Assembly: GCA_965222075.1 (NCBI GenBank)
Contig: OZ244937.1
Span: forward strand, 160,001 to 224,000
Origin: Candidatus Latescibacterota bacterium
GTDB taxonomy: Bacteria > Latescibacterota > UBA2968 > GCA-2709665
Direction of reading: 5' to 3'
Length of the DNA stretch: 64,000 nt
A program made the translations under genes and the position numbers. Shown piece after piece: positions 9,756 to 63,518 of this stretch; position 1 is the stretch's first letter; each line of letters opens with the position of its first letter. The notes below the pieces were generated by a model. The model worked only from the letters and a program-made list of their open reading frames with translations, was not told the DNA's origin and ran no database searches.

Positions 9756-10568
9756 ATGGCACGCGATCAGGTTCAATCGGCCGCACTTCTAAGCGATACC
9801 CAATGGCAGCAATACCTTGAAGAAGGTCACGTCCGCCTTGGAAAGGTGACGGAAGAGGGCGAGGTTGAGGCCCTCTGCCAGCGGATCGACGACATCATGC
9901 TTGGGAAGGCCACGATCGACTATGACCGGATGCTCATGCAGCTGGACAGCAAGACCGGCGAGGCCTTCACGGCGGGGCCCCAGACCAAGGGCCACAAGGG
10001 TGCCACCCTGGACTACCGGAAGATCCAGGATCTGGAGCTCGACCCTCTCTTTCTGTCCTACATGCAAAAGCCCCTCTTCCGAGAAATCTGCGCGCGCGCC
10101 TACGGCAAAGACACCCCCATCTCCTGCTTCCGGGCGATGTTTATGAACAAGCCGGCCAAGAGGGGAACCCACCTGACCTGGCATCAGGACGTCTTTCGAG
10201 ACCTAGATGGTAACCCGACGGTCACGATCTGGATGGCCATGGACCGCGCGACGACCGAGAACGGATGTGTCAAGATCATCCCCGGGTCGCACAGATCCCT
10301 CCTGGATCCGGAAAGCCGCAAGGCCTTTCTGCCCGATGAGAAGGTGGAGCCCTATCTCAAACAGTCTGGATTCCTGACCCTCGAGGCCGGAGCCGGCGAG
10401 GGCTTCCTCTTGCACAACTGGATGATCCACGGCTCTGAAATCAACAAGACCGACCACCCCCGCCGGGCGTTCAGCGTCTGCTTCATGGACGCTGCGACCA
10501 AATCTGACAAGGGTCAGGAATTCTCCATCATTTTCGGTGAGGGTGCCCTGGAACCCGATTTGCCGTAG
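9756..10568 (+). CDS. Phytanoyl-CoA dioxygenase (PhyH)-family Fe(II)/2OG oxygenase, canonical HxD
   Basis: 'WHQD', 'ENGCVKIIPGSH', 'HGS', 'RRAF'. Confidence 0.9.
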   Translation: MARDQVQSAALLSDTQWQQYLEEGHVRLGKVTEEGEVEALCQRIDDIMLGKATIDYDRMLMQLDSKTGEAFTAGPQTKGHKGATLDYRKIQDLELDPLFLSYMQKPLFREICARAYGKDTPISCFRAMFMNKPAKRGTHLTWHQDVFRDLDGNPTVTIWMAMDRATTENGCVKIIPGSHRSLLDPESRKAFLPDEKVEPYLKQSGFLTLEAGAGEGFLLHNWMIHGSEINKTDHPRRAFSVCFMDAATKSDKGQEFSIIFGEGALEPDLP

Positions 10569-10699
10569 CTCGAATGCCTCTGCCGGATCGTCAAGAGTGG
10601 CGATTTAGGCGACAGCTGGCAGCAGGTGGACCTCCCTGAGGCCGCGGGTATTTCATCACAGCCTTTTGCACGGGAGTTCCCCAAATCTGGAATGGAACG

Positions 10700-11569
10700 A
10701 TGAGCGAAATTGTCGTCTGCTCACCGGAAGAACTGACGAGCCATTGGGGCGGTGACCAGAACTTCTTGATCAGTCCGAAGTTCTGGCGCTTCGACGTGGC
10801 CTTTCCGCCTGTGGAAGAGGTCGTCGACCACGTGAGGAAGGACAATGGCGCCCACATTCGAATCGACGGGGATCACGACGAGGCCGAAAAGGCCGAACTG
10901 ATCCAGAGGTTCAGGACCGGTCCTATCGATGAGGTCATCGACTATCCCTTCAGGCTCGGTCACTACCATCTGAGCCAGTTCTATGGTCCGGACTATTGGC
11001 GCGTATCAGGAAGGGAATCCGCTGAATCCCTGCAGCCCCCTCGGGAATCTTCCGGGAACGGGACGGTTCCCTTCCTGAGGGACCTCCAGGACAAAGTCAT
11101 GAACCCCTGGCGGGGTTTCCTATCCAGTTTGGGTTTCACCTGGCAGCGCTGCCATCCGATCATCTTCATCTCGGGAAAGGGTTGCGGATCCGGCTACCAC
11201 GTCGACGTCTCCCACGTCGTGGCATGGCAGGTCTGGGGGACAAAGGTCTTCAATGGCTTCAGAAACCCGGAACGGTATGCCCCCCTCGAGCAATGCGTCA
11301 AAGCGAAGAACAGCCTGAGGCGGGAAAAGCCTCCCGACCACCCTGACGAGGATCTCGTCAGGTGTGAGATGAATCCGGGAGACCTTTTGTGGAACCAGAT
11401 CCTGACCCCGCACTGGGTGGATGCCACAAAGGATGAAGTGGCGATGAGCCTCAATATCGCCCACGGTGGGCTCCGGTACCGGGGGGCCTTCTGTCCCAGA
11501 GAGGCCCGGCTGAGAGAACACTGGGCCGAACACCCCGAAGAGGCCAAGCTGACGAACTTGCGGTATTAG
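10700..11569 (+). CDS. JmjC/cupin-like Fe(II)/2OG oxygenase
   Basis: 'GYHVD.SH..AWQVWGTK', 'MNPGDLLW....PHWV', 'SLNI'. Confidence 0.7.
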   Translation: MSEIVVCSPEELTSHWGGDQNFLISPKFWRFDVAFPPVEEVVDHVRKDNGAHIRIDGDHDEAEKAELIQRFRTGPIDEVIDYPFRLGHYHLSQFYGPDYWRVSGRESAESLQPPRESSGNGTVPFLRDLQDKVMNPWRGFLSSLGFTWQRCHPIIFISGKGCGSGYHVDVSHVVAWQVWGTKVFNGFRNPERYAPLEQCVKAKNSLRREKPPDHPDEDLVRCEMNPGDLLWNQILTPHWVDATKDEVAMSLNIAHGGLRYRGAFCPREARLREHWAEHPEEAKLTNLRY

Positions 11570-11640
11570 TGTGGCCTGGCGGCCCCGTATACGAGTGATA
11601 ATGCAACCAGGTGATGCCCAAAACAGATGAAAGGGCTCCG

Positions 11641-13110
11641 ATGAACGTCCTCCTGATTCAGACCGATCGGCACAATCCCCAGTTTTCGGGATGCTACGGC
11701 AGTCCCATCACCCGCACCCCGAATATCGACAGCCTCGCCGAACGGGGCACACGTTTCGACCGCGCCTACTGCATCAGCCCTCTGTGTGCGCCCACCCGGG
11801 CCGCCGTCATGGCCGGAAGGTATGTCCACGAGATCGGGACCTGGTCGAACGCCTTTCCCTACACCGGTGTCCCGAAAGGTTGGGGCCACTACTTCAAAGA
11901 GCAGGGCGTCCATCTCACCACCATCGGCAAGCTGGACTACGACCCGGAGGCCGACCACGGCATCGCCGATGTCCGCCAGTCCAAGCTTCGCCAAAACCTC
12001 AACGTCCTCTCCTGCTTCCGCGAGCAGGACATGCCGCCCCGTTACCTGCTCCTCCACCGGCTGCGCAAGACCGGTCCGGCTGATTCGCCCCAACCCTTCA
12101 AGAGCGATGACGACGTCGCGGAGGAGGCGACGCGCTGGCTGGCCGACGAGCACCCCACCGACCGGCCCTGGATCCTCAGCGTCAATTTCACGAGTCCACA
12201 TCCCACCTGGAACCCACCCAAGGAGCTGTGGGACCACTACGATCCGCTGATCAAGATCGAAGACTTCGACGAACGCTATACCGAGGACCTCTCCCGTCTT
12301 CACCCCCACCACCGGACCTTCATTCGTCACGTCTGCGGGGACCTGGTGAAGCCTGAGGAGCTTCGCCTCGGGCACGTGGGCATGCACGCCACCACCGAAG
12401 CGGTGGACGGCAACGTGGGTCGTGTCGTAAATGCACTGGATGGGGCCGGTCTGATGGGGAAGACGGTCGTCGTCTATACCTCCGATCACGGGGGGTGTTG
12501 CGGGGAGCACAGAGACTGGGGCATCGGCTCCATGTATGAAGACTCCATCCGGGTCCCCATCATCGTCGCAGGACCCGGCGTCTCTTCCGGGGCGGTCCAG
12601 AACACACCCATTTCCCATCACGACCTGTACCAGACCATCTGCGAGGCCACCGGAGCGGACCTGCCCATACACACGCGTGGCCTGTCGCTCTGGGGCCTGC
12701 TGCGGGGCGAAAAGGACGCCTCAAGACCCCGATTCACGCTCTCCGAGTACCACGCCGTCGGATTTCCCGCCAGCATCTTCGCCATCCGTTCGGGCCATCT
12801 CAAATACGTCGAGTATGTGGGCGAAAGGCCTTCGCTCTTCAATCTTGAGGATGACCCTCTCGAGATGCACGACCTCGTCCTCGAACGCCCTGACGACCCC
12901 GAAACGCAGGCGAACATCCGCCGGCTGCGGAGGATGCTCTGCGAAGTCTGCTCCCCCGAGGCCGTCGACGCCCGGGCCAAGGCCGATCAGCGCGCCCTCC
13001 GAAAAGAGGTCACCGAGAGCGGTCGCATCCTCCGGGAGCTGTGGAGGCGCGGCTTCGAGCGGAATCCCGACGAGCTGATACCCCGAGAAGACATCATTCC
13101 AGAGCTCTGA
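11641..13110 (+). CDS. Sulfatase-family hydrolase, choline-sulfatase-like clade A, copy 1
   Basis: 'TDRH', 'TPNIDSLAERGTRF', CAPTR (CxPxR), 'TSDHG', 'LFNLEDDPLE'; no signal peptide. Confidence 0.9.
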   Translation: MNVLLIQTDRHNPQFSGCYGSPITRTPNIDSLAERGTRFDRAYCISPLCAPTRAAVMAGRYVHEIGTWSNAFPYTGVPKGWGHYFKEQGVHLTTIGKLDYDPEADHGIADVRQSKLRQNLNVLSCFREQDMPPRYLLLHRLRKTGPADSPQPFKSDDDVAEEATRWLADEHPTDRPWILSVNFTSPHPTWNPPKELWDHYDPLIKIEDFDERYTEDLSRLHPHHRTFIRHVCGDLVKPEELRLGHVGMHATTEAVDGNVGRVVNALDGAGLMGKTVVVYTSDHGGCCGEHRDWGIGSMYEDSIRVPIIVAGPGVSSGAVQNTPISHHDLYQTICEATGADLPIHTRGLSLWGLLRGEKDASRPRFTLSEYHAVGFPASIFAIRSGHLKYVEYVGERPSLFNLEDDPLEMHDLVLERPDDPETQANIRRLRRMLCEVCSPEAVDARAKADQRALRKEVTESGRILRELWRRGFERNPDELIPREDIIPEL

Positions 13111-13375: not shown

Positions 13376-14371
13376 ATGAACCAGCCCCCAGAAACCTTCA
13401 TCAGGGTCTCCCACCGGGACCTGCAGGCCTTCGTCTCCAGGGCCGCACAGACCGTCGGCATGCCCGAAGAGAAGGCCGATCTCCTCGCCGAATTGCTCAC
13501 CGCCTGCGACCTCCGGGGTAACGTCAGCCACGGCAGCCGACAGATCGCCCGGTATGCCACCTGGATGCGGGACCGAAAGATCAACCCGAATCCGACCGTG
13601 CGCGTGGTCAAAGAGACCCACGTCAGCCTAATCGTGGATGGAGACGGCGGCCTGGGTTACTTCCCGATGGTCGAGGGGACCAAGCGCGCGATCGAGAAGG
13701 CGAAGGCCGAGGGGATGGCCGTGGTACTGACCCGAAACCACGGTCACTTCGGCGCAGCGGGTCTCTATTCCCGGATGCCCCTCGCGCACGACCTGCTAAC
13801 ACTCGTGACCGAGGGCTTTCGGCCGAATATTGCGCCGGGCATGCCCATCCACCTCGCCGCGGGGGGCTCCCCTCCGATCTCCTTCAGCGCGCCTGCCGGA
13901 GAAGAGCCCCCGCTGGTCCTGGATTTCGGGACGATGCACGACCTTCACCCCGGCTCTCCTCACCGGGAGGAGATCTCGAGGATGGCGCCCGGCATCCTCT
14001 TCCGATCGCTCGGACTGGGGGCGATCTGCCAGGCCTGGGCCGCCTTTCTATCTGGTGCGGGCGAATCGGAGTTCCCTGCGGATGTCCCGAGACCCGGAGC
14101 GCAACCCAAGTCCAAAGGGGGACTGCTGATCACGTTCCAGATCGGCCTGTTCACGGACCCGGCTCGGTTCAAAAGAGAGATGGACGACTACGCGCGCCAG
14201 GTGCGGTCGCTCGAACCGCTTGGGGGATTCGATGGGGCCTGTCTGGCGGGTGGACCGGAGGCGGCACGCGAGCGCATCTACCGAAAGGAAGGCATCCCCG
14301 TGGGGACCGAGCACCAGCAGCGGCTTGAAAAGCTGGCTGCCGAGTTGGAGATTGAAGTGCCCTGGGCGTGA
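13376..14371 (+). CDS. Ldh_2-family (malate/L-lactate/sulfolactate-type) dehydrogenase, copy 1
   Basis: 'DLRGNVSHG', 'VDGDGGLG', 'NHGHFGAAG', 'PLVLDFG', 'GIPV'. Confidence 0.9.
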   Translation: MNQPPETFIRVSHRDLQAFVSRAAQTVGMPEEKADLLAELLTACDLRGNVSHGSRQIARYATWMRDRKINPNPTVRVVKETHVSLIVDGDGGLGYFPMVEGTKRAIEKAKAEGMAVVLTRNHGHFGAAGLYSRMPLAHDLLTLVTEGFRPNIAPGMPIHLAAGGSPPISFSAPAGEEPPLVLDFGTMHDLHPGSPHREEISRMAPGILFRSLGLGAICQAWAAFLSGAGESEFPADVPRPGAQPKSKGGLLITFQIGLFTDPARFKREMDDYARQVRSLEPLGGFDGACLAGGPEAARERIYRKEGIPVGTEHQQRLEKLAAELEIEVPWA

Positions 14372-14463: not shown

Positions 14464-15483
14464 ATGACCTATCTCGCCTGCGTATCCGTTCACGGGGAAA
14501 ACAAGATTTCGACATTCAGAATAGACCCTGAAACCGGGGCGCTCCAAAACCGGACCGAAGTCCCACTCGACGCCGCCCCCGGGTCACTCGTTTTCGGCCC
14601 CGAACGAAGTGTCCTCTATGCCGTTATCCGGCAGCCACACCTCCAGATCCTCAGCCTGCGAATCGATCCAGACGGAGGGGGGTTTTCGCCCGTCGGCACG
14701 GTATCCCTCGAGGCGAATCCCTGTTACGTAACCTTGGATCAGACGCGCCGCTTTTTGTTCTCCGCCTACTACTTCGACGGTCTGGTCGCGGTACATCCCA
14801 TCGACGAAAATGGGGCAGCCGGCGGCCCGCCCGTCGAATGGCGCTCTACGGCCGTGAAGGCCCACTGCTTCCGGACCGACCCGTCCAACCGGTATGCCTT
14901 TGTCCCCCACACCGGCGAGTCCAACTTCATTGCTCAGTTCAAATTCGATGGGGAAACAGGCGCCTTGACTCCCAACGACCCCCCCAGGGTCGAAGCCGAT
15001 GAGGGCGCCGGTCCCCGCCACTTCCTCTTCCACCCTGACAAGGATGTCGTCTATTTCTCCAACGAGCAGGGGGGCAGCGTCACAGCCTACCGATTCGATC
15101 CGTCCGCCGGGACGCTCGCGGCCTTCCAGACCGTTTCGACCCTGCCCGAAGGCTTTACCGAACATAACCACTGTGCCCAGATCAACATCACGCCCTCCGG
15201 GAGGTTCCTCTACGTCTCCAATCGGGGCCACGACAGCATCGCCTGCTTTGCGATCGACGGTGACACCGGTGAGCTAACCGCTCTCGGGCAGCAGCCCACG
15301 GAGCAGAGGCCGAGGGCGTTCACCGTCGATCCGACCGGGAATTTTCTGCTCGCCGCCGGCCAGGAATCCGGGAGACTGGCCTCCTACCGAATCGATGCTG
15401 AAACCGGCAAGCTCGAGCCCTTGAAGATTTACGACATCGGCGACAATCCGGCCTGGGTGCTCGCTCTCGCCTTGCCGGAATAG
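14464..15483 (+). CDS. Lactonase family (6-phosphogluconolactonase-like beta-propeller)
   Basis: 'AHC..DP', 'GAGPRH..FHP', 'SNE', 'FLYVSNRGHDSIA', 'PR.F.VDPTG'. Confidence 0.9.
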   Translation: MTYLACVSVHGENKISTFRIDPETGALQNRTEVPLDAAPGSLVFGPERSVLYAVIRQPHLQILSLRIDPDGGGFSPVGTVSLEANPCYVTLDQTRRFLFSAYYFDGLVAVHPIDENGAAGGPPVEWRSTAVKAHCFRTDPSNRYAFVPHTGESNFIAQFKFDGETGALTPNDPPRVEADEGAGPRHFLFHPDKDVVYFSNEQGGSVTAYRFDPSAGTLAAFQTVSTLPEGFTEHNHCAQINITPSGRFLYVSNRGHDSIACFAIDGDTGELTALGQQPTEQRPRAFTVDPTGNFLLAAGQESGRLASYRIDAETGKLEPLKIYDIGDNPAWVLALALPE

Positions 15484-15523: not shown

Positions 15524-16441
15524 ATGGAGTCAGAGGATTGGCGGGGGATCTTCACGATTCCCCAATCCGTATTCCACGATGACGGAAGGTTCGACGAGGC
15601 CGGGCTGGAGGCCGAGCTTGAATTCTGCCTCGGGGCGGGGGCACACGGCATCGTCTGGCCGGTCATGGCCAGCCGGTTCGCCATCCTCTCTCACCAGGAG
15701 CGGAAACGGACCGCCGAGATCGTCATCCGGAAGGTAGGCGGAAGTGCCCCAGTCGTCATCGGCGTGGCCACGGTCTGGTCTGAGTCTTCGGTCGACCTGG
15801 CCCGCCACGCCGAAACGGAAGGCGCGGACGCCATCATCTCTCTCCCGCCCTGGGAGGTGAAACCGACACGAGAGCAGGCCTTCGATTACTACCGCGCCCT
15901 CTCCGAGGCCGTCACGATCCCGATCTTCATCCAGAACGCCGGGGGGAAGTTTGGGATGGCGCTCCCGGCTGAGCACGTGGCTCGGATGGTCCGGGAGCTC
16001 GACGGTGTGGACTACGTCAAGCAGGAGATCGCGCCCTTCGGCCAGCACATCACGCAGGTCATCGACGCCTGCGGAGACTCGGTCAAAGGCGTGTTTGGAG
16101 GCGCCAACGGCAGACACATCGTCGACGAGTTCAACCGGGGTGCGGTCGGCAACATGCCGGCTTGCGCGATCACCGACGTCCTCGTCGAGCTCTACAAGCG
16201 ATATGCGCGTGGAGACGAGCCCGGTGCTCGGGAGGTCTACCACGCAATCATGCCTTACCTCAATTTCCTCAGACTGTTCGGCATGGGGCTCATCCTGGAG
16301 GTCCTCCGACGCAGGGGGGTGGTCCGGTCCACGTCGCCCCGGATCGGGAAATTCGAGCAGCTTGATGCCAATGACCACCGTGAGCTGGATCTCATCCTTG
16401 AGGGGCTCCGTCCTTATTTCCGGCTCCAACCCCCTGCTTGA
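15524..16441 (+). CDS. Dihydrodipicolinate synthase/N-acetylneuraminate lyase family aldolase
   Basis: 'GAHGIV', 'PVVIGV', 'GADAI', 'PIFIQN', Schiff-base Lys in 'YVKQE'. Confidence 0.85.
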   Translation: MESEDWRGIFTIPQSVFHDDGRFDEAGLEAELEFCLGAGAHGIVWPVMASRFAILSHQERKRTAEIVIRKVGGSAPVVIGVATVWSESSVDLARHAETEGADAIISLPPWEVKPTREQAFDYYRALSEAVTIPIFIQNAGGKFGMALPAEHVARMVRELDGVDYVKQEIAPFGQHITQVIDACGDSVKGVFGGANGRHIVDEFNRGAVGNMPACAITDVLVELYKRYARGDEPGAREVYHAIMPYLNFLRLFGMGLILEVLRRRGVVRSTSPRIGKFEQLDANDHRELDLILEGLRPYFRLQPPA

Positions 16442-16479: not shown

Positions 16480-17966
16480 ATGAATACCATTTCAAATCCA
16501 TACGAAAGAATCGGTGTGCGCAGCTTCATCAACTGCTGCGACACCCGAACGGTCCACAGCGGCACGCTGATCCTCCCCGAAGTGGCAGATGCGATGGTGG
16601 CCGCCTCCAAGCATTTCGTGAACATGGAAGAACTAAAGGCGTGAGCAGGCGGCTCGCGGAACTCACAGGCGCAGAGTGGGGAATCGTAACCGCGGGGGCC
16701 GCGGCCTCCCTCTTTCAGGCCACGGCGGCCTCCATAGCCGGCGCCGACCCGGAGTTGATGATTCGCCTGCCGAATACGGAAGGCCTCAAAGACCGGGTCA
16801 TCACGTGGAAGGGAGGGCGATACACCTTCGACCACGCGGTCCGAATGGCCGGTGCCCGGATTGTGGAGGTGGAGACCCGTGAGGAATTGATCGCCGCCCT
16901 GGATGAGCGGGCCGCGATGTTCCTCATCCGGGCGAGCCAGGAGAAGCAGGGACCGCTCTGCCTTGAAGAGATCGCAGAAATCACGCGTCCCCGGGGGATC
17001 CCCATCACCATCGATGGCGCGGGCCATCACCTCGTCTTGCCCAACCCCTACCTGACCCGGGGCGCCACGATGATCGCCTACAGCGGCGGAAAGTACTTCC
17101 GGGGGCCGCAGTGCACCGGATTGCTCTTGGGCGACAAGAAATGGATCCGTGCCGCCTGGCGAAACGCCTCCCCGCATCACACCCTCGGGCGGGCGATCAA
17201 GGTCGGGAAAGAGGAGATCGTGGGGCTCCTGGCCGCGGTGGAACACTGGGCGGCCGTGCGGGACCCGGAGGCGGAGCTTCGGCAGTGGGAGGCCGACCTG
17301 GCCACGATTGCGGACGAAATCGGCAAGGTGCCGACTGTGGAGACCGAAGTTATCCAGGCGGGGGTGCCTTTCATGCCCGTGCCCCGGCTCAGAGTCCGTT
17401 GGGACGGCAACCGGATCGGGCTGACCGGCCTGGAGCTCCGGGAGCGTCTCCTGGAAGGAGAACCCCGAATCATGCTCGACGACCGCAGGGCCACCGACTC
17501 CTCCCTGTTCATCCTGCCCTATTCGTTGCAGCCTGGCCAGGCCTCCGCCGTGGCCTCCCGGCTCCGGGAGGCGCTGGCGAACGCCCCGATGCGCAGCCTA
17601 AGCAAACCCGACCCCCCTGCCGTTAAAATCACCGGTGTGTGGCAGATGGACGTCGAATTCGTCAAGGGGACCTCGGCCCACGAGGTCGTCCTGGAGCAGC
17701 AGAGAGGCGAACTGACCGGGCTCCACCGCACCCGGTTCCTGGAGAATCCCCTCTCCGGCAGCGTGAGGGGAAACGAGGTCACGTTTAGAAGCTGGCAGCC
17801 GCTCGAAGGCATCAATCTCTCGTATTGCTTCACGGGTACGGTAGATGGAGATACCATGGAGGGCCTCGTGGAACTCGGGAATTCCAGTTCTTCCACCCCG
17901 GGACCGCTCAACCAGCAGGAGTTTGGCCACGCACGATGGCAGGCCAGACGAAAGGACGGGACCTGA
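16480..17966 (+). pseudogene. SelA/DgaE-like PLP-dependent enzyme, frameshifted near 16640
   Basis: 16480..16644 encodes the family N-terminus (NPYERIGVRSFINC..T.T..SG...PEV..AM..AS..FVNMEEL). 16641..17966 continues (RRLAELTGAE, 'YSGGK.FRGPQ.TG', 'KVGKEEI'). Real lesion or assembly error. Confidence 0.7.
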
Positions 17967-30082: not shown

Positions 30083-30130
30083 CGTTCTGATCCAGGACAG
30101 TATTCTGGATCACCTATGGAGGATGGACCG

Positions 30131-41370: not shown

Positions 41371-41397
41371 ATGACTGATTCGTTTGGAGGCAATGGA

Positions 41398-54446: not shown

Positions 54447-57374
54447 GTGCCAAAACCTGCAACCGACCGTGTCTCCGTTTTCATTGAGCCGATTCCCGGC
54501 AGGGAACCGGACGGGTTCGCCGTTGCCTTTCGTGGTGCCGACGGCTCCGAGGCAACCGGCGCCGAGTTCTCACTGCCCGCCGGAAAAGTGGGCACCTGGG
54601 AACTGACAGTGACGGTGGCCTCCGAGGTCGCAACCGGCGGCGGATTCCTCTTCCAGCGGCGCGGCTTTCTGCTGGGACACCGAACGGTAGTAGGCGTGAT
54701 CCTGCTCGCTGTCGTTTGGAGCTTGAGGTCGGTCACTGGCGTGGCCGCCCAGGAGCTATCTGCGGCGGCCGTTGACTCCATCTACAAAAGCGGGTTGAAA
54801 GCCAGGGATGCCAGAGGTGTGCTGGCAGCGGCCAGCAGGTTGGAGGCAGCCGTTCCCGGCTTCCCCGAACCCGCCAAACTGCTGAGCCGGATCGGCATGC
54901 TCTACCTGCGGACCGGAGCGACTGACAAGGCGCGGTCGGCCTTTCACCGGGCCATTCAACACAGCGCTGGACAGGTGGACGCCCACGTCGGATTGGGACG
55001 CATCGCCCTGGAGCTGGAGGATGATCCGGAGCAGGCGCTGGCCCACTTCAGGGCGGCCATGGCGGCCGATTCCACCTACAAATGGGCCCCCTACTTCGCC
55101 GCACGGGCCGCGTCCCGCATCGGCCTTGCGCTGATCAAGGAGGGCGTGGCCGACAGCGCCAGGTCGATGCTGCAGGAGGCCATTTCGCACGATCCGGACC
55201 TGGCCAGTTCGCACATCGGGCTCGGGCGTGTTGCCCTGGAATTGAAGCGAGATCCAGATATGGCCCTGTCCCACTTCCAGGCGGCTGCGAAGCTCGACTC
55301 TACGAATGCTGAGGTCCATTATCTTCTCGTCCGGACCTACGAAAAGCTGAAGGATCACGTTGGGGCCAGAAAGTCTGCGGACCGAACGATCCGTCTCGAC
55401 CCCGCTCACGCCCAGGCCTATCTCCTGCTGGCACGGTCGCATCGAGCAGAAGGCAACCGAAAGGCGGCCCTGGTCTATATCAAGAAGTACCTCGAGCAAA
55501 AGCCGTCGGACCAGGAACCGGCCTACGCCTTTGCATTGGAGTTGATGGAGGAGGGTCGATTCAGGGAGGTCGAGGAAATCACCTCCAGGATGACGAACGA
55601 CGAGGCCCTGCCCCTGCTGGCGCAGTCGTTAATGAAGAGGGGTGACTTCGAGAGTGCCGCCGCCGCGTTCGAACTCTTTATGAAGGGCTTGTCCACAGAA
55701 GAGCGAAATCAGTATACCGACATCTCCCTGGTGGCGTTACCCCACGAGCTCGAAGCCTACCAAGAAACGCCCGAGGAAAAGCGCGCCGATTTTTTACGCC
55801 AGTTCTGGCTGCGCCACGATCCCTTAAAGGCTTCCGGGGGCTGGATGCGCCGCGCCGAGCACTATCGAAGGGTCTGGTACGCGCGCACCTTCTTTGGAGA
55901 AGGGAAATGGCCTTGGGACCGCCGCGGGGAGGTCTACATTCGCTACGGTGAACCGGACTACCGTTCCACTTCGGAGAAGATCAACGCCCAGGTTCCCCCG
56001 GCGGTCCAGCAGGTGCAGGACAAGATGGCCTATGAGCTTTATGGGCAATCGGCGATCGGGCTCTCTTTCCAGGGGCCCGTCTTTCCGATTCGAACGGGCC
56101 TCGGATTTCACGACGATCCCCCCCAGGAATTCATCGAGGAGGCGGAAGGCTTCTTTGCCGCGGAGGAAGGGTTGAGCCTTGAAGCCCTGGAGGAGCCGTT
56201 TCCTGAGGCAAGGGTCCATCTGGACCCCGAATTCACGATCGGATTGACCAACTGGAAGCCGGTCGTCGGGGGAAACAACTGGGCGGCGATTCCGTGGGAG
56301 GTCTGGATTTACGCCAACGTGGGCACCGGACTGGAAGTGGCCTTTACTGATGAACGTCGATCCAATGCCTTCGACTACGCGCCTGTCCCTGGAGTGACGA
56401 AACGCGACCTGGACCAACTGGACGAAGATCGCTACGCGGGACAAACGGCCTATATGCGACTCGTCCAGCGTTTGACGGAGTATGCCCCGGGCGTTCGAGT
56501 CCAGACCGTGGCCAGCAGCCAGCCCGAGCACTATGACGTAGCTGAGTTTGAACCGTTGGATTTCTACTACGACGTTGTCTCATTCCGGGGCAGGGCCGGG
56601 AAGACGGACCTGCAACTGAATATCGGAATCCCGATCGAAAGCGTGATTCTGGAGCCAGATACGGCAAAAGTCGTGAAGTTGAACCGCCGGGTCGCGCTAC
56701 TAGACGCCGCGGAGTCCTGGGCCGTACCGATGCAGAGGGACCTGCAGGTCCCCATATCCGGCCAGAGAGCGGGCAGGGCGCTGCTGGACAGGGTAGACGT
56801 CATCGATTTCCAGCCAGGAGATTACAAGGTTGCGGTTCAGGTGCATCGGTACGACACCAACCGCCTCCAGGCTTACGTGCAGGAGCTTTCCCTCGAAGAC
56901 TATTCGGGTGCGGACCTGATGCTGAGCGACCTGTTCGTGGCAAAGGAGGTGTCCGAGGCCGCGTCCACCTCAGATCCCAATTTTGTGCGAGGGAAGTGGA
57001 GAATCATACCGCTGCCGTCCCACGTCTTTCACGTAGGACAGCACGTGTTCATCTATTTCGAGATCTACAACCTGACGCGGGATGAGTTCGGGGGCACGCG
57101 CTACAGGGTGACCTATGAGGTCCGTGGAACCGATGAGACCGGAATCAGCAGCGCACCCCTCCTCACCAGGATCCTCGGGCGGCAGGCGGGGGCGACGGTA
57201 ACGGTCAGCTATGAACAGACCGGCACAGAAGAGTCCGTTTCGGACTACGTGGGCCTCGACATCGGGGACGCCTCTCCGGGACGCTACACGGTCCAGATGA
57301 CCGTAAAGGACCTGCACAGCGGCCAGGAGGCGACCAAAGAAAGGACGTTTTGGGTCAAGAGCCGCTCCCAGTAG
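54447..57374 (+). CDS. TPR + GWxTD-type domain protein carrying an N-terminal DUF3604-gene fragment (chimeric ORF)
   Basis: TPR repeats; 'FW...DP', 'EHYRRV.YA...F', 'WDRRGEVYIRYGEPD', 'WEVWIY', 'YFEIYNL'. First 79 aa match the N-terminus of the 32848/42458 proteins. Confidence 0.8.
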   Translation: MPKPATDRVSVFIEPIPGREPDGFAVAFRGADGSEATGAEFSLPAGKVGTWELTVTVASEVATGGGFLFQRRGFLLGHRTVVGVILLAVVWSLRSVTGVAAQELSAAAVDSIYKSGLKARDARGVLAAASRLEAAVPGFPEPAKLLSRIGMLYLRTGATDKARSAFHRAIQHSAGQVDAHVGLGRIALELEDDPEQALAHFRAAMAADSTYKWAPYFAARAASRIGLALIKEGVADSARSMLQEAISHDPDLASSHIGLGRVALELKRDPDMALSHFQAAAKLDSTNAEVHYLLVRTYEKLKDHVGARKSADRTIRLDPAHAQAYLLLARSHRAEGNRKAALVYIKKYLEQKPSDQEPAYAFALELMEEGRFREVEEITSRMTNDEALPLLAQSLMKRGDFESAAAAFELFMKGLSTEERNQYTDISLVALPHELEAYQETPEEKRADFLRQFWLRHDPLKASGGWMRRAEHYRRVWYARTFFGEGKWPWDRRGEVYIRYGEPDYRSTSEKINAQVPPAVQQVQDKMAYELYGQSAIGLSFQGPVFPIRTGLGFHDDPPQEFIEEAEGFFAAEEGLSLEALEEPFPEARVHLDPEFTIGLTNWKPVVGGNNWAAIPWEVWIYANVGTGLEVAFTDERRSNAFDYAPVPGVTKRDLDQLDEDRYAGQTAYMRLVQRLTEYAPGVRVQTVASSQPEHYDVAEFEPLDFYYDVVSFRGRAGKTDLQLNIGIPIESVILEPDTAKVVKLNRRVALLDAAESWAVPMQRDLQVPISGQRAGRALLDRVDVIDFQPGDYKVAVQVHRYDTNRLQAYVQELSLEDYSGADLMLSDLFVAKEVSEAASTSDPNFVRGKWRIIPLPSHVFHVGQHVFIYFEIYNLTRDEFGGTRYRVTYEVRGTDETGISSAPLLTRILGRQAGATVTVSYEQTGTEESVSDYVGLDIGDASPGRYTVQMTVKDLHSGQEATKERTFWVKSRSQ

Positions 57375-57434: not shown

Positions 57435-58595
57435 ATGAAAATTACCGATATCAAGACGACAATCGTTTCTATCCCCTTCACGGAGGTGGAAATCTGGTCT
57501 ATGGGCCACAGGCCCGGCGTAACGAATATCATCCTTGAGATCTGCACCGATGAGGGAATAACGGGTCTCGGAGAGGCTATGGGGTTTCCCTCGGTCGCCG
57601 TCGTGCACGACATCGTCGAGCTATCCAAACCCAGGCTCATCGGCCAGGACCCTTTTAACGTGGAGAAGGTTATGGATCTTCTCTACAGGTCCGGGGGATG
57701 GCAGAGCTTCCTGAACACAGGAAACATAGCCCTGGGCGGGATCGAGATGGCCCTTTGGGACATCATCGGAAAGGCGTGCGGAAAACCCCTGTATCAACTG
57801 TTCGGAGGGCTGGTCAGAGAAAAGATCCCCTTCATGTACTTCCTGCCCAGGACAGACCAGGATCAAATGGTGGAAAGAGCAAAGAAAGCCGTAGAAAGGG
57901 GCTTTCGAACCATCTACATGAAGGTCGGGATCGACCCGGAAGAGGATGTTCGACTCGTCCGGGCGGTGAGGGAGGCCGTCGGTTCCGGTCCCAACCTCCG
58001 CGTCGACGCCAACGAGGCCTGGTCCCCTTCTCAGGCGATCAACATGATCCGAAAAATGGAGGAATACGATCTCGAGTTCGTGGAACAGCCCGTCCATTTC
58101 AGGGATTTCGACGGCATGGCCACCGTCAGACGCTCCGTGGACGTCCCCATCGCGGCCAATCAGACCTCCTGGACCCAGTTCGATGTCCTGGAAGTGATCA
58201 AGCGCGAAGCGGCCGACATCGTGCTGACGGACCCCCATCAACTCGGCGGGCTCTTTATCTTCAAAAAGGTGGCCGCGATGCTCGAATTTGCAGGCATTCC
58301 CATCGTCAAACACACCTTCTGCGACCTGGGCGTGTCAGCCAACGCGGCCATGCACGTGGTGGCTTCGAGTCCGAACTTCACCTACGCGAATCAGACTTAT
58401 GGTGATTACCTGAGCGACGACATCATCCAGGGAGGGCTGCCCAACTTCGAGGGAGATTGTGTTTCGGTTTCGCAAAGGCCCGGTATTGGCGTCGAGCTGG
58501 ATCCTGAGAGGATGGAGAAATATTCGAAGCTCTATAGAGAGAAGGGAGAGTTTTCGGCCTTTACACCCAATATGGGAGCGGTAGAAACCCGGTGA
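57435..58595 (+). CDS. Enolase superfamily (mandelate racemase/MLE; glucarate-dehydratase-like) enzyme
   Basis: 'EMALWDI.GK....PLY.L.GG', 'RVDAN', 'EQP', 'AAN', 'DPH', 'PGIGVELD'. Confidence 0.88.
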   Translation: MKITDIKTTIVSIPFTEVEIWSMGHRPGVTNIILEICTDEGITGLGEAMGFPSVAVVHDIVELSKPRLIGQDPFNVEKVMDLLYRSGGWQSFLNTGNIALGGIEMALWDIIGKACGKPLYQLFGGLVREKIPFMYFLPRTDQDQMVERAKKAVERGFRTIYMKVGIDPEEDVRLVRAVREAVGSGPNLRVDANEAWSPSQAINMIRKMEEYDLEFVEQPVHFRDFDGMATVRRSVDVPIAANQTSWTQFDVLEVIKREAADIVLTDPHQLGGLFIFKKVAAMLEFAGIPIVKHTFCDLGVSANAAMHVVASSPNFTYANQTYGDYLSDDIIQGGLPNFEGDCVSVSQRPGIGVELDPERMEKYSKLYREKGEFSAFTPNMGAVETR

Positions 58596-58623
58596 CAGCA
58601 ACCAGATGGAGGGAGGGAGTACC

Positions 58624-59502
58624 ATGGGCGGTCTGAGTCCCCGGCGAACTGCGTCTTTCCTGGAGAACGGATACCTGGTGCTGGAGCATCTGCTCTCCCC
58701 GGAGGACCTGCAGCCCCTGATCGACGAAATCGAAGCAGTGATCGACCGGAAGGCCCGTGAGGCATACGCAGAGGGGCGTCTGAGCGACCTGTTCGAGGAC
58801 GAGCCGTTCGACCGTCGCCTGGCCTGTCTCTGCGAGACGATAGAGAGTCCTGGGGACATCAGAACCGCGGTTATGGGGAGAAACCTGAAGGCTGGGATGT
58901 TTGGGAGCGCAGGAATGTTCCGGGTGATTACCCACCCGAAGGTTCTGGACATCGTCGAGTCGGTGATAGGCCCCGAGATCCTCGCCCACCCCCAGTTCAA
59001 TCTGCAGGCCAAGATGCCCCGAGAGGAAATGTCGAAAGTCCCGTGGCATCAGGACCTGGAATTCCTGGAGTCCGACGCGAAAGAGACGTTTATGGTCAAC
59101 GTCTGGATTCCGCTCGTCGATGCGACGGTCGAGAACGGATGTTTGCAAGTCATTTCCGGCAGCCACAAGGCCGGGCTGATCTCCCACGGCAAACTGCCCA
59201 ACTACCGGACAAGGGGAGTAAAGGTGGATAACTTCCCGTGTGGAGCAATCCAGTCCTGCCCGATTTTGAAAGGCGGAGCGGTCGTATTTCAAAACGTAAC
59301 CGTCCACCGCTCCTTCCTCAACCGGACCGAGGGCATCCGATGGACCGTGGACCTTCGCTACTCCGATCCGGGATTGTCCACCGGCCGAGATGAAATCTCT
59401 GGCTTTACCGCGCGCAGCAGGGCTCACCCCGAAACGGTGATCAAGAACCACGAGGAGTGGGCCAGCCTGATGCCCGATCGGGCACTGCTGCACAGATCAT
59501 AG
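58624..59502 (+). CDS. PhyH-family dioxygenase, canonical HxD
   Basis: 'PWHQD', 'WIPLVDA..ENGCL...GSH', 'HRS..N....RW'; alternative start 58606. Confidence 0.9.
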   Translation: MGGLSPRRTASFLENGYLVLEHLLSPEDLQPLIDEIEAVIDRKAREAYAEGRLSDLFEDEPFDRRLACLCETIESPGDIRTAVMGRNLKAGMFGSAGMFRVITHPKVLDIVESVIGPEILAHPQFNLQAKMPREEMSKVPWHQDLEFLESDAKETFMVNVWIPLVDATVENGCLQVISGSHKAGLISHGKLPNYRTRGVKVDNFPCGAIQSCPILKGGAVVFQNVTVHRSFLNRTEGIRWTVDLRYSDPGLSTGRDEISGFTARSRAHPETVIKNHEEWASLMPDRALLHRS

Positions 59503-59581: not shown

Positions 59582-60355
59582 ATGCTTTTGGACGGTCGCG
59601 TGGCCATCATCACCGGCGGGGCCAGCGGGATCGGCCTGGCCACGGCCCGACGCTTCGGCAAAGAAGGTGCCAGACTCTGTGTGGCCACGATCAATCAAGA
59701 GAAGATCGACCGGGCGGTACCGGAGCTACAGGTCGAAGGAGTCGAGGTGATCGGCCAATGGGTCGACGTTCGGAAGATGGAGGCCGTAAAGGCGATGGTC
59801 GCTGCCGCCATGGAGGCGTTCGGCCGCATCGACATCCTGATCTGCTCTCACGCCTTTTCCGCCTTCGACAATGTCGTCGACCACGACGATGCCCTTTGGG
59901 AGCAGGTCATCGACGTTGATCTGACCGGCTGCTATCGCTGCAGCAAGGCCGTGCTTCCCGCCATGCTGGAGCGGAAGTGGGGACGGATCATCTACGTCTC
60001 AGCAACATCGGCGTTTAGAGCGCAGGCGGCCTGGACGGCCAAGTGCAGTGCCAAGACGGGGCTGCTCGGACTCACCCGCGGGCTGGCCCTGGAAGTGGCC
60101 CAAGACGGCATCACCGTCAACGCCATCTGTCCCTCCTGGGTTCGGACGAAACTCGCCGAAGTGGATGCCCGCGCCCAGGCGGAGCGGGAGGGCAAGTCCT
60201 ACGAACAGTTCTGGGAAGAGACCCTCGCCACGTACCCGATGAAGCGTATAACGGAACCGGAGGAGCAGGCGGATCTGATGCTTTATCTGGCCAGCGATGC
60301 GGCGCGCGGCATGACGGGGCAGGCCATCGCGTTGACGGCCGGTGCCGACTGGTAG
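59582..60355 (+). CDS. Short-chain dehydrogenase/reductase with atypical catalytic motif
   Basis: 'TGGASGIG', 'FGRIDIL', 'WGRII', 'ITVNAICP', 'TGQ'; 'AKCSAK' in place of YxxxK. Confidence 0.88.
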   Translation: MLLDGRVAIITGGASGIGLATARRFGKEGARLCVATINQEKIDRAVPELQVEGVEVIGQWVDVRKMEAVKAMVAAAMEAFGRIDILICSHAFSAFDNVVDHDDALWEQVIDVDLTGCYRCSKAVLPAMLERKWGRIIYVSATSAFRAQAAWTAKCSAKTGLLGLTRGLALEVAQDGITVNAICPSWVRTKLAEVDARAQAEREGKSYEQFWEETLATYPMKRITEPEEQADLMLYLASDAARGMTGQAIALTAGADW

Positions 60356-60537: not shown

Positions 60538-61407
60538 ATGGACGAGTATGAGAAATACCTCTTCGACCTCAACGGCTATCTGGTCCTCGAAGACGTGCTC
60601 ATACCCGAAGAGGTCGCGGCCTGCAACGAGGCCATCGACCACAACCCGGCGGGCGTCACCAAGAGACCCGACCATCGCTTCAGATCGGGCGGCTCGGAAG
60701 CGTTAAAGGGCGAAGTCCGGCGAGACCTGACGGGAATGCTGGCCTGGCCAAAGCCCTGGTGTCTGCCTTTCAGGACACTCCTCTCACACCCCAGGATCAT
60801 GGGCTGTATGCGAGAGTTGCTGGGTGACGGCTTTCGGCTGGATAGCCTCATGGGCATCTTGATGAGCAAAGGTACAGAAGGTTTCACGCTCCACGGAGGC
60901 GGCACCAAGCGCAACAGCTTCGTTCACTTCTACGGATTTGTCAACGGACGGATGCGGGGCGGACTCACCGTGGCCTCTTGGGCCCTGACCGACAGTTGCC
61001 CGGGGGACGGTGGTTTCGCCTGCATCCCCGGCAGTCACAAGGCCAATTACCCGCTTCCCCGGGACGTGGCCCGCCTGGAGAGGGACCTGGGGGTGGTCAG
61101 ACACGTTCCAGTCAAAGCCGGGTCCGTTATCATCTTCACGGAAGCCCTCACGCACGGTACCCTCCCGTGGAAGGCCGATCACGAGCGTCGGGCCGCTCTC
61201 TTCAGATATACCCCCGGTCCCATTGCTCAGAATCACCCCGAGGCCTATCGCAGATCCGACGTGACCGCCGACACCAGAAATTATCGGCCCAACGGCGTCG
61301 ATGAGATGCTGGAGGAATTCACACCCACGCAGCAGGCGCTGCTGGAGCCCCCATACCATCCCGGGAGACCCAAAATTCCCGCTGGCTGCGGGGCCTGCGC
61401 CACCTGA
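60538..61407 (+). CDS. PhyH-like enzyme, 'MDEYEKY' clade, copy 3 (HxG motif)
   Basis: 'LHGG', 'GGFACIPGSHKANY', 'EALTHG', 'RRAALFRY'. Confidence 0.85.
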   Translation: MDEYEKYLFDLNGYLVLEDVLIPEEVAACNEAIDHNPAGVTKRPDHRFRSGGSEALKGEVRRDLTGMLAWPKPWCLPFRTLLSHPRIMGCMRELLGDGFRLDSLMGILMSKGTEGFTLHGGGTKRNSFVHFYGFVNGRMRGGLTVASWALTDSCPGDGGFACIPGSHKANYPLPRDVARLERDLGVVRHVPVKAGSVIIFTEALTHGTLPWKADHERRAALFRYTPGPIAQNHPEAYRRSDVTADTRNYRPNGVDEMLEEFTPTQQALLEPPYHPGRPKIPAGCGACAT

Positions 61408-61442
61408 GGCAGAACCGGTAATAAAAAAGGAAACACGACGCC

Positions 61443-63518
61443 ATGAGTGCCGATACTTCAGGGGAAGCTGGACCCAGATTCGATCGATCCTTTCTGCCAG
61501 ACGCCACCTTTGAATTCGTCGTCATCGGTGACACCCACTATATGCTCGACCCGAAAGCCTTTGCGGCGGAATTTGATTCTGTCCGTCACTGGCCCAGGCG
61601 TGCCGAGTGGGCCCTCCGGCTGGCGGCCGCTCTAAAGGGCGCCTTTGTCGTCCACCTGGGCGATCTCGCGCAGGAGTACGTGGAGAAGGAGGGTTTTTCC
61701 GGAGCGAGGGAGAAGGCGCTGGACCAGATCAGGCGATGTGGCATGAAGCCCCACCACGTTGCGGGAAACCAGGATGTCGGAGACAAGCCCGATCCCACCA
61801 TGCCGGCGGAGTGGGTAACGTTCGACACGCTGGGTGAATATCACCGCGTGTTCGGTCGGTCCTGGTACAGCTTTGACAACAACGGGGTCCACGGCATCGT
61901 CCTCAATTCCCAGATCATGAACGGGCCTCTTCCTGAGGCGGAAGAGCAGAAGCAGTGGCTTGAATCAGACCTTTCCGAGCACGCGGGGCAGCGCATCTTC
62001 GTCTTTATCCACATGCCCCCTTTCTTTGTGGACGAGGATGAGCCGGGTCTCAGTTTTTACAACAGTATCGACGAGCCGGCGCGGGGATGGCTGCTGGGCC
62101 TGCTTCGCAAATACAGGGTCGAGCTCCTGTTTTCGGGCCATACCCATTTCGCAGCGTTTAACCGTGTGGACGAAACCCGCCTTTTTGTCGTTCCGTCCAC
62201 CACGACTTCTCGCGCAGGATTCTATGAGGCATTCTCCGTTTGTCCTCCCACCGAGCAGGGCAGAAACGACGTGGCAAAGATGGGTTTCTACCTCGTCCGC
62301 GTGCGAGAAGATGGAGCCAGGGTCCATTTCATACGGACAAACGGCGAAACCGGGCCGACACAGCCCGACAGGACGGGAAGTCGGCTTATCACCCGGATCT
62401 CACCAGACCTGCCGGAGTCCCCCGTGGGTCTCTTTCTCAGGCTGCCCCTCGCCCAGATCGCGCTTGGATCCGTTGCCTGGCCCGGGGCGATCCGCCAGCG
62501 GGTTCGGGATGACCATCCGTTCCGTGCGTGCCTTGAGCTCGGCGCCCGTCACGTGCGGATCCCAGCCCCCGACCTGGACGATCCACTGCAGAGCCGGCGC
62601 TTGAGCATGCTTAGAGACGAGGGAGTCTGCATCACAGCCTTCTGGATTCAGTCCGATCGATTGGGACTCTACGATACGGTGTCTAAGGTGGCAGACAGGA
62701 TCGATGCCGTCGAGGTGCAAATGCCGGGTACGCCCTTTCCCGACGAGGCCGTCCGAAGGGACCTCGAACGTCTTCAGGAGAGCGCGGCCCTGCCGGTTAC
62801 GCTCTCACCGCTCTTTCCCAAGGAGCGGATGCCCGGGAAGTTCCACCCAAGGATGCGGATCGGCTATCACCCGTCCGAGCTGCCGGAAGTGAACAAACAG
62901 CTGTCCCGGACGGACACACGGGTGGATCGGCTGCTCTGCCGGCTCGGACCGGAGCGGCGGCCGTGGGAGGCCATCCAGGAATTCATGTCACTCCTACCCC
63001 TGAGCCAGATCGAAGGCCTGGACTTCTTATTGGAACTCCCCGGCACGGATGAGGCCCCGCAGGTTATCCGCGCCACCGAGGGCCTCTTTGCCTCCTGCCT
63101 GCTCCCCGGCTGCCGTCTCTTTCTCGATCCGCTCGTGGACCTGGACCGGACCAATGACATCAACCACGGCCTTTTGGACCGCCTGTCCAACCCGAGGCCG
63201 GCGTTTCACGCCGTGCGATGTCTCAACACGATTCTATTCAGTCATCCAGAGTCGTTCCGTCTGTTTGGAGCAAAAGAGATGGATGGAGGAAGGGCGATCG
63301 GGATCAGTGGAAGCGGAAAATCTCTGTGGTTACTCCTTCCTGAAGGGAAACTTTCTGTCCGTTCACAGGAGCTCGAGGGCCTGGATCCGAGCAAAACGGA
63401 CGTACACGCCTTTCATCTCGTCCAAGGATTCAGCCGGCGACATCCCGCGGGCGACAGCGATCTCGCTCCATCGATCTCCGGCATCGTCGACCCCGTCCTC
63501 CTGATGTCCACAGCATGA
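61443..63518 (+). CDS. Calcineurin-like metallophosphoesterase fused to an uncharacterised C-terminal domain
   Basis: 'GDTH', 'HLGD', 'GNQD', 'IHMP', 'SGHTH'. Confidence 0.8.
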   Translation: MSADTSGEAGPRFDRSFLPDATFEFVVIGDTHYMLDPKAFAAEFDSVRHWPRRAEWALRLAAALKGAFVVHLGDLAQEYVEKEGFSGAREKALDQIRRCGMKPHHVAGNQDVGDKPDPTMPAEWVTFDTLGEYHRVFGRSWYSFDNNGVHGIVLNSQIMNGPLPEAEEQKQWLESDLSEHAGQRIFVFIHMPPFFVDEDEPGLSFYNSIDEPARGWLLGLLRKYRVELLFSGHTHFAAFNRVDETRLFVVPSTTTSRAGFYEAFSVCPPTEQGRNDVAKMGFYLVRVREDGARVHFIRTNGETGPTQPDRTGSRLITRISPDLPESPVGLFLRLPLAQIALGSVAWPGAIRQRVRDDHPFRACLELGARHVRIPAPDLDDPLQSRRLSMLRDEGVCITAFWIQSDRLGLYDTVSKVADRIDAVEVQMPGTPFPDEAVRRDLERLQESAALPVTLSPLFPKERMPGKFHPRMRIGYHPSELPEVNKQLSRTDTRVDRLLCRLGPERRPWEAIQEFMSLLPLSQIEGLDFLLELPGTDEAPQVIRATEGLFASCLLPGCRLFLDPLVDLDRTNDINHGLLDRLSNPRPAFHAVRCLNTILFSHPESFRLFGAKEMDGGRAIGISGSGKSLWLLLPEGKLSVRSQELEGLDPSKTDVHAFHLVQGFSRRHPAGDSDLAPSISGIVDPVLLMSTA

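Follow-up and report, generated by a model that had tools for sequence, protein, structure and literature searches.

Thirty-seven tightly packed genes, all on the + strand, occupy positions 9756..63518 of a 64,000-nucleotide stretch of a Candidatus Latescibacterota genome (hereafter the window), and within these 54 kb the enzymes of at least seven families lack residues that are normally catalytic. The variants are not decay, and both the scaffolds and the new residues are under purifying selection. In four of the seven families (the PhyH-type oxygenases with a changed iron motif, hereafter PhyH-G; the Lys-less DegT protein, DegT1; an enolase-superfamily enzyme; and a metallophosphoesterase) the change is a known or ordinary subfamily trait. 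The other three, a clade of aldo-keto reductases (AKR-E), a short-chain dehydrogenase/reductase (SDR-K) and one clade of sulfatases (clade A), are conserved, uncharacterised variants and good candidates for altered chemistry. The best explanation for the region as a whole, which I hold with moderate confidence, is that this one-strand island is a mosaic of separately conserved modules, likely degrading sulfated glycans or glycosides inside the cell.

The host genome is a single contig (C1) of 5.36 Mb, in which the window corresponds to C1:160001-224000. The same gene families continue on the same strand from ∼141 to ∼281 kb, and the window is therefore the core of an island of ∼140 kb, with a GC content of 0.62 versus 0.59 for the whole genome. 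The variant families were picked by the reader who made the initial annotation, after seeing the sequence; alignments to solved structures or to family members bear out that the textbook residues are absent, as listed, in all seven. The 14 variant genes amount to ∼7 independent lineages, because of tandem duplication. The phylum collection comprises 168 species genomes, and comparisons were made among the 167 others. The top 9–15 candidates were scored in each of these, and many of the genomes are incomplete, so that a family is reported as not found rather than absent.

The three AKRs (25600–26592, 30116–31120 and 35122–36135) are clear family members by PF00248 (175–189 bits, for a cut-off of 24), but HMMER alignments to MtmW (6ovq) and AKR6D1 (8hw0) place Gln, Glu and Glu, respectively, at the Tyr of the D-T-A-x-x-Y motif. 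The Asp and Lys of the tetrad are kept in all three, and the third copy has Gln for His. AKR-E forms a clade of 26 homologue clusters with 52–100% identity, and all other homologues share at most 43%. Glu is found in 23 of the 24 members spanning the site, the one Gln being that of the window copy, and Tyr in 34/34 of the next homologues outside the clade. Further columns conserved in 94 canonical homologues (Ser 1.00, Asn 0.88, Gln 1.00, Arg 0.99, C-terminal Asn 0.93), of which the Ser and Asn follow the GK(V/I)RY(I)G strand, are replaced in 22 AKR-E members, the Ser/Asn/Gln positions reading C/W(G), G/S. In aldose reductase, these Ser, Asn and Gln residues hold the nicotinamide carboxamide. 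An AlphaFold model of the 30116–31120 product has a predicted local distance difference test score (pLDDT) of 85 and an intact fold, with template-modelling (TM) scores of 0.82–0.85 to MtmW and Kv-beta. With the Tyr and the Ser/Asn/Gln set replaced in an intact barrel, NAD(P)H would no longer be bound in the usual way, and AKR-E is probably a cofactor-independent acid/base enzyme using Glu, Lys, His and Asp. Compared with AKR families 6, 11 and 14 and with MtmW, it shares the fold, the Asp, the Lys and, in most members, the His, but differs by the Tyr-to-Glu change, the five replaced columns and a post-Lys loop that is ∼11 residues shorter; no Tyr-bearing homologue exceeds the 43% identity given above.

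A metagenome scan with one AKR-E query returned a single close locus (L031, 5.9 kb, 71% identity), where the neighbours are DUF3800 and DUF499 genes and no island genes are present. When genome contigs were scanned with the AKR-E alignment, only canonical AKRs of at most 40% identity were among the matches listed, which is weak evidence for rarity. A fourth AKR-E copy lies outside the window, at C1:233408-234138. It is 82–83% identical to 30116–31120, contains TGA and TAG stops, and overlaps with a clade-C sulfatase open reading frame (ORF), at the 5′ end of the latter; this is the sole clear decay seen in the island.

SDR-K was aligned to 3-hydroxybutyrate dehydrogenase (6zzq) and to actinorhodin ketoreductase. 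It resembles these classical enzymes over its full length (167 bits), and keeps the Lys of YxxxK and the nucleotide-binding motif TGxxxGxG, as TGGASGIG (TGxxxGIG), but its tetrad reads Asp-Ala-Lys-Lys where the canonical one is Asn-Ser-Tyr-Lys, and NNAG has become CSHA. These substitutions are fixed in ∼60 homologue clusters. Across the 60 full-length clusters of the clade (63–100% identity; there are roughly 68 SDR-K clusters in all, and roughly 26 for AKR-E), Lys occupies the Tyr site in 58, with one Gln and one Ile, Ala occupies the Ser site in 60/60, and the catalytic centre is near-invariant ('SATSAF..WTAKCSAK'). A sister clade at ∼50% identity has Gln in 12/12, and Tyr is present in the 30 canonical sequences among the matches listed. 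The named homologues of SDR-K are from Bryobacterales. SDR-K combines the retained nucleotide-binding motif with a rebuilt catalytic centre, and probably carries out a related but non-canonical reaction. Elsewhere in the genome, C1:1200825-1210979 holds a paralogous group in the order enolase - SDR - SDR … PhyH (HxD) - Ldh_2; one of its SDRs is of the canonical type, the other having Asn/Arg in place of Tyr/Lys, and a similar odd SDR lies at 3985031.

The sulfatases of the window fall into three clades. The six clade-A copies keep CxPxR and have Asp for the His of GKxH; the 'PH' His is lost in three of them, and the position equivalent to the Lys of the choline-sulfatase 'WFK' is I, V or Y. 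In arylsulfatase A, the corresponding set is K123, H125, H229 and K302. Clade A retains the first Lys, has Asp for the first His, lacks the last Lys, and is variable at the 'PH' His; in arylsulfatase A, the equivalents of the lost His and Lys engage the sulfate and the leaving group of the substrate. All clade-A copies examined here and in relatives share DRH[NT], C-x-[PA]-x-R and GK[LV]D and have no Lys at the last site, which varies among H, Y, M, I and V. The genome has 11 copies, 10 of them in the 141–281 kb island, and carrying relatives have one or two each. Choline sulfatase BetC (6FNY) is the best PDB and NCBIfam match. In keeping with S1 sulfatases and BetC, clade A has the CxPxR motif, the first metal-binding Asp, the DH pair and the GK Lys, and no signal peptide by eye. 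It differs from BetC in its score (222 bits versus an equivalog cut-off of 433), in the His, second Lys and 'PH' His positions described above, and in a conserved D-R-H-N, with Arg-His in the first motif, for the D-Q-L-N of choline sulfatase. Clade A keeps the formylglycine motif and the metal residues within a rebuilt catalytic environment, and it probably catalyses a related but non-canonical reaction.

Clade C (39910) has Met for the Lys and Ser for the 'PH' His, as aligned to 9koq and 7oz8, and clade B (38423, 48951) has the canonical residues; the initial annotation was thus correct in stating that clades A and C lose Lys and His. A third clade-B copy, outside the window at C1:229428-231026, reads GKWD (His to Asp) like clade A. 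The genome encodes ∼20 proteins with a formylglycine-generating enzyme (FGE) domain, and no anaerobic sulfatase-maturating enzyme (anSME) was found in it. Some related genomes have >200 sulfatase candidates each. For AKR-E, SDR-K and clade A no characterised counterpart was found. In the open-access literature, no relevant paper on an AKR with its Tyr replaced was found by title or abstract, none on an SDR with 'KxxxK' alongside 'YxxxK', and none on PhyH with sulfatase and Poribacteria; two papers mention DUF3604, and by their listing neither deals with its function.

In contrast to these three, the remaining variants have counterparts among known or ordinary subfamilies, an outcome that the initial annotation had named as one that would count against rewired chemistry; it holds for the HygX-type, SerTA-type, 2pgw-type YxK and sporadic GNQD proteins. 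Both DegT proteins score above the Pfam cut-off (238 and 253 bits), as expected of the fold-type I scaffold, and residues 4–418 of the 422-aa DegT1 align to 8gyh. Three PDB alignments place Arg or Gly at the Schiff-base Lys position of DegT1, and DegT2 keeps the Lys. The Lys-less site, 'RGAMSVGEGG', is identical in two other copies of this genome and in the relatives G001, G004, G078 and G079. DegT1 is always immediately upstream of a Lys-bearing paralogue of ∼48% identity; there are three such tandem pairs in this genome and one in each of the four relatives. The SerTA report (PMC11726168) describes, in Serratia sp. ATCC 39006, tandem DegT-type genes (Ser4/Ser5) of which one lacks the Schiff-base Lys; their products form a heteromer in which each dimer has a single active site, and the Lys-less partner is needed for activity. 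Because of this precedent and of the conserved tandem pairs, DegT1 may have no catalysis of its own and instead complete the DegT2 active site within a heteromer. Ser4 is truncated (24.6 kDa), unlike the full-length DegT1. The pair studied here also differs in its catabolic context, in which no amino-group carrier protein was seen.

The enolase-superfamily enzyme (57435) has Y-M-K for KxK and keeps the second Lys, which is the catalytic base in the mandelate racemase (MR) and muconate lactonizing enzyme (MLE) subgroups. The YxK arrangement is shared with 2PGW ('FYLKVG'), its best PDB match (208 bits), and with four 40%-identical proteins in relatives. By alignment, strand 6 carries an Asp and strand 7 a His, which I take to be the positions forming the MR-type dyad, and the metal ligands were located by eye. 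2PGW, a structural-genomics 'muconate cycloisomerase', also has the His after strand 7, but the residue preceding the GG motif is Gly instead of the Asp of the window enzyme; 2PGW is not known to have an assigned function. The metallophosphoesterase (61443) has the DxH, GD, H and GHxH elements of PF00149 and no PDB match by phmmer. Its GNQD appears in 7 members of a 113-sequence family alignment, the others including 94 GNH[DE], 4–6 GNMD, 3 GNTD and 3 GNVD. Its nearest relatives are mixed, and the change is therefore a recurrent, tolerated one. From these alignments, YxK and GNQD can both be regarded as ordinary family variation. The same applies to a substitution missing from the initial list: the dihydrodipicolinate synthase (DHDPS)-like protein (15524–16441) reads 'IQNAG' where 7c0c and 3fkk have 'VQDAP', and keeps the Schiff-base Lys, so that by alignment its Gln-for-Tyr is explained by a characterised subfamily, L-2-keto-3-deoxyarabonate dehydratase.

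Three of the five PhyH-type 2-oxoglutarate (2OG) oxygenases depart from the HxD iron motif, with H-G-A (19563), H-S-G (22078) and H-G-G (60538), and the other two (9756 and 58606) have HQD. Residue equivalence was not taken from a MAFFT alignment of the five copies, in which the HxD region is misaligned. The genome has at least 13 PhyH-G copies, including 8 of HxG type in the 141–281 kb island, and the clade numbers 2078 proteins at E<=1e-5, its named members coming from metagenome-assembled genomes (MAGs) of Chloroflexi, Latescibacteria and Gemmatimonadetes. HxG is found in 109 of the 120 top homologues and HxA in 4. Such a motif is a hallmark of halogenases of the SyrB2/WelO5/BesD type, and these 113/120 homologues are what could suggest Fe/2OG halogenases with a halide in place of the missing carboxylate. 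I consider this extremely unlikely, and rejected it on the alignments: E-x3-H, with Glu four residues before the distal His, occurs in 119/120, and the best PDB match is HygX, which does not halogenate. Another two-His oxygenase, AspH, reportedly hydroxylates. The window copies read 'EALTHGT' (60538) and 'EALAHGA' (19563) at the relocated acid, and the iron triad is thus most likely intact, its acid having moved; the possibility of residues shifted nearby, raised in the initial annotation as a test of its proposal, is what was found for PhyH. The only PDB matches of 60538 are the orthosomycin oxygenases HygX and AviO1. According to a 2026 review (PMC13374393), the HygX iron site is H-X-G…E-X3-H, with the acid relocated and Gly in the old position, and HygX (PDB 4XC9/4XCA/4XCB), the orthoester-forming Fe/2OG oxygenase of hygromycin B, has a PhyH-type fold and a glycoside substrate. 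The arrangement is the same in 60538 ('EALMHGT' in HygX), but the alignment covers only the C-terminal 100 residues (E 1e-8), HygX belongs to a biosynthetic cluster as opposed to the catabolic, multi-copy setting here, and 22078 has His for the relocated Glu. This protein is the only one of the 120 homologues with His there, and could form a 3-His metal site.

The possibility that the variants are pseudoenzymes, or are in early decay after redundant duplication, draws on the broken fourth AKR-E copy, on DegT1 being probably non-catalytic alone, on the additional loss of His in AKR copy 3, and on the variable residue at the lost-Lys position of clade A. Nei–Gojobori dN/dS is nevertheless 0.09–0.28 in all 26 paralogue pairs (AKR, clade A, PhyH-G, Ldh_2, DUF3604 and clade B), ratios that are rough since dS is mostly >1, i.e., mostly saturated. 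Every window gene is full length. For each variant there is a clade of homologues in which the residue is fixed, and the substituted residues are near-invariant across distant homologues, unlike those of drifting dead sites. General decay was rejected on these grounds, and I regard it as very unlikely; the initial annotation had come to the same view. That annotation had gone further, and proposed that the variants belong to one co-evolved pathway, rewired as a whole to suit an unusual class of substrates. It is in favour of such a pathway that all the families are under purifying selection, that at least seven variant families share one strand within 54 kb, that 4/4 AKR-E copies (among 16 AKR-family ORFs in the genome), 10/11 clade-A copies and 8 HxG-type PhyH genes are in the 141–281 kb island, and that one relative, G079, has AKR-E, clade-A sulfatases and the DegT1/DegT2 pair, albeit on different contigs. 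The concentration of variants in the island is however attributable to tandem duplication, not to independent events.

The distribution of the families among the 167 relatives argues against a single pathway. SDR-K was not found in any of them (E<=1e-70, top candidates per genome), AKR-E was found in one (G079), the PL2-like protein in 3, the Lys-less DegT in 5 (one with an internal stop), and the clade-A sulfatase in 20. The variant families do not travel together in these genomes. They are instead found in separate modules. DUF3604 and clade-A sulfatase genes, with an esterase and a Lys-bearing DegT in some cases, associate in genus g6, where they adjoin (<=1.5 kb) in 11/12 loci, and in G030, where the order is esterase-DegT-DUF3604-sulfatase-esterase. 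DegT1 and DegT2 form another module, joined by the TPR protein in G079. AKR-E and the PL2-like protein form a third, in this genome and in G079, being adjacent in 2/5 PL2-like loci. In G079 this pair is preceded by an Opp-type ABC transporter, and neither sulfatase nor PhyH genes occur within 12 kb upstream or 6 kb downstream. In addition, the named homologues of PhyH-G and SDR-K are from different phyla, and several of the variants are the ordinary subfamily traits described above. A single jointly rewired pathway is accordingly unlikely, and the differing distributions and separately conserved modules indicate a mosaic enlarged by tandem duplication.

The most likely role of the mosaic island is the intracellular degradation of sulfated and esterified glycans or glycosides of sugar acids or amino sugars. 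In the sketch suggested by family membership, formylglycine sulfatases of the three clades, which have no N-terminal extensions, would remove sulfate, and the glucuronoyl-esterase-like hydrolases, the deacetylase-like protein and the DUF3604 metallohydrolases would strip other substituents. The glycan would be cut by the PL2-like and GH42-like proteins, and sugar C-H bonds oxidised by the HygX-like 2OG oxygenases. The lactonase, the enolase-type dehydratase, the L-2-keto-3-deoxyarabonate (KDA)-dehydratase-like enzyme, Ldh_2, the DgaE-like ammonia-lyase and the DegT transaminase would then lead to central metabolism. The PL2 assignment by Pfam is weakly confirmed by a low-confidence structure model (pLDDT 60, 5 sequences), whose best match is YePL2A (E 1.5e-7, TM ∼0.5). 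A bolder version, in which AKR-E is a cofactor-independent acid/base enzyme (possibly a keto-deoxy-uronate isomerase that takes over what the PL2-like lyase encoded next to it releases), SDR-K and clade A catalyse new reactions, and the three together provide a so far undescribed way of breaking down sulfated uronate or amino-sugar glycans within the cell, is speculative and I think it rather doubtful. A number of points weigh against the mosaic and its proposed role. No substrate, transporter or regulator was identified within the window, so that the pathway sketch rests on family names. The cytoplasmic location was read from N-termini by eye, the nicotinamide role of the AKR Ser/Asn/Gln is carried over from aldose reductase, and the Ser-to-Ala call in SDR-K needs a gapless alignment, with Ser present at -1 and +2. 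Finally, the comparison spans 167 genomes of one small phylum, and the AKR-E and SDR-K families may co-occur elsewhere, in metagenomes.

The complete gene content of positions 9756..63518 is listed in Table 1. It comprises 9 sulfatases, 5 PhyH-type oxygenases, 3 AKRs, 2 Ldh_2 dehydrogenases, the DegT pair, 2 DUF3604 metallohydrolases and a partial one, and 2 Abhydrolase_7 esterases, with single genes for a lactonase, DHDPS-like, DgaE-like pyridoxal phosphate (PLP), PL2-like, GH42-like and deacetylase-like proteins, an FAD oxidoreductase, the enolase-type enzyme, the SDR and the metallophosphoesterase. None of the 18 proteins tested reached an NCBIfam curated cut-off. Two more Abhydrolase_7 esterases are encoded upstream, at window positions 4716 and 6777, and an IS630-type transposase (DDE_3 and HTH_32 ORFs, 8386-9566, - strand) is directly upstream of the first gene. 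Paralogues are numerous in the whole genome, with ∼33 sulfatase, ∼33 SDR, ∼26 enolase-superfamily, ∼24 DegT, at least 19 PhyH, 16 AKR and 15 Ldh_2 ORFs. The 10700-11569 product has an H-V-D … H pattern by eye, and could belong to a cupin/JmjC-type oxygenase. The longest ORFs at 44553-46820 and 52791-54383 overlap the preceding genes by 190–240 bases, and translation probably begins near 44740 and 53067, respectively. The tetratricopeptide repeat (TPR) protein (54447-57374) repeats the N-terminus of the DUF3604 proteins in its first ∼100 residues (86 bits), and an apparent hydrophobic segment comes next; it has three island copies (paralogues at genome positions 141790 and 243222), and an orthologue near the DegT pair in G079.

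Table 1. Genes of the island core, in window coordinates, with the basis of each assignment.
Feature	Position	Strand	Basis
PhyH-family 2OG oxygenase, canonical HQD	9756..10568	+	Pfam PF05721, 89.8 bits; HQD in translation
289-aa protein of no family	10700..11569	+	no Pfam/NCBIfam match
Clade-A sulfatase, copy 1	11611..13110	+	CxPxR, GKLD, no Lys, PH His kept; Pfam and motif table
Ldh_2 family dehydrogenase, copy 1	13376..14371	+	Pfam PF02615; under every NCBIfam cut-off
7-bladed propeller lactonase	14464..15483	+	Pfam PF10282, 283.8 bits
DHDPS-family protein, Gln at Tyr of YNxP	15524..16441	+	best PDB matches 7c0c/3fkk
DgaE/SelA-like PLP enzyme, start codon uncertain	16641..17966	+	NCBIfam TIGR01437, 124.7 bits, below cut-off
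Clade-A sulfatase, copy 2, start probably near 17966	17825..19414	+	Pfam and motif table
HygX-like PhyH oxygenase, H-G-A … E-A-L-A-H	19563..20420	+	translation, homologue alignment
Clade-A sulfatase, copy 3	20444..21907	+	aligned to choline sulfatase 6fny; motif table
HygX-like PhyH oxygenase, H-S-G … H-A-L-T-H	22078..22920	+	His where relocated Glu expected
Clade-A sulfatase, copy 4	22917..24404	+	Pfam and motif table
Ldh_2 family dehydrogenase, copy 2	24483..25481	+	Pfam; 79% identity to copy 1
AKR-E clade member, Gln at Tyr position	25600..26592	+	PDB and homologue alignments
Distant PL2 (pectate lyase family 2)-like protein	26799..28331	+	Pfam PF06917, 35.7 bits; 3′ of AKR-E gene here and in G079
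Clade-A sulfatase, copy 5	28434..29969	+	Pfam and motif table
AKR-E clade member, Tyr to Glu	30116..31120	+	alignments; model pLDDT 85, TM 0.82 to MtmW
Clade-A sulfatase, copy 6	31154..32623	+	Pfam and motif table
DUF3604 / CehA-McbA-type metallohydrolase, copy 1	32848..35103	+	Pfam/NCBIfam; orthologue adjoins clade-A sulfatase in relatives
AKR-E clade member, Tyr to Glu and His to Gln	35122..36135	+	homologue alignment
FAD oxidoreductase, phytoene-desaturase/CrtO type	36399..37931	+	Pfam, NCBIfam
Clade-B sulfatase, canonical residues	38423..39895	+	Pfam, 178 bits; motif table
Clade-C sulfatase, Lys to Met and His to Ser	39910..41370	+	aligned to 9koq and 7oz8
Polysaccharide-deacetylase-like protein	41371..42318	+	Pfam PF01522, 34.2 bits
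DUF3604 metallohydrolase, copy 2	42458..44746	+	Pfam; 67% identity to copy 1
Abhydrolase_7 / glucuronoyl-esterase-like esterase	44553..46820	+	Pfam; GHSLG in translation; real start probably near 44740
GH42-like protein	46924..48954	+	weak Pfam match
Clade-B sulfatase, canonical residues	48951..50426	+	Pfam and motif table
Abhydrolase_7 esterase	50462..51613	+	Pfam; orthologue adjoins DegT-DUF3604-sulfatase A in G030
DegT1, full-length DegT-family protein without Schiff-base Lys	51766..53034	+	PDB alignments
DegT2, DegT aminotransferase with Lys, in tandem with DegT1	53067..54383	+	Pfam; listed ORF starts 52791
TPR protein, N-terminus like DUF3604 proteins	54447..57374	+	86 bits to DUF3604 query
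Enolase-superfamily enzyme, YxK, second Lys kept	57435..58595	+	alignment to 2pgw
PhyH-family oxygenase, canonical HQD	58606..59502	+	Pfam; translation
SDR-K: Tyr to Lys, Ser to Ala, Asn to Asp, NNAG to CSHA	59582..60355	+	PDB and homologue alignments
HygX-like PhyH oxygenase, H-G-G … E-A-L-T-H	60538..61407	+	HygX best PDB match
Two-domain metallophosphoesterase, GNQD	61443..63518	+	Pfam; family alignment

Annotation pipelines name the AKR-E, SDR-K and clade-A scaffolds ordinary reductases and sulfatases, and if their chemistry differs, genes of these kinds would be misannotated by automatic procedures in soil and marine metagenomes. If the proposed role is true, AKR-E would be a rare example of an AKR barrel recruited for a non-redox function. 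Likewise, heteromeric aminotransferases of the sugar type, of which a single one has been published, would be extended to catabolism by a DegT partner that lacks the Lys but is full length. More generally, lists of missing catalytic residues need to be checked for residues that have been relocated, as exemplified by the HygX-type E-x3-H.

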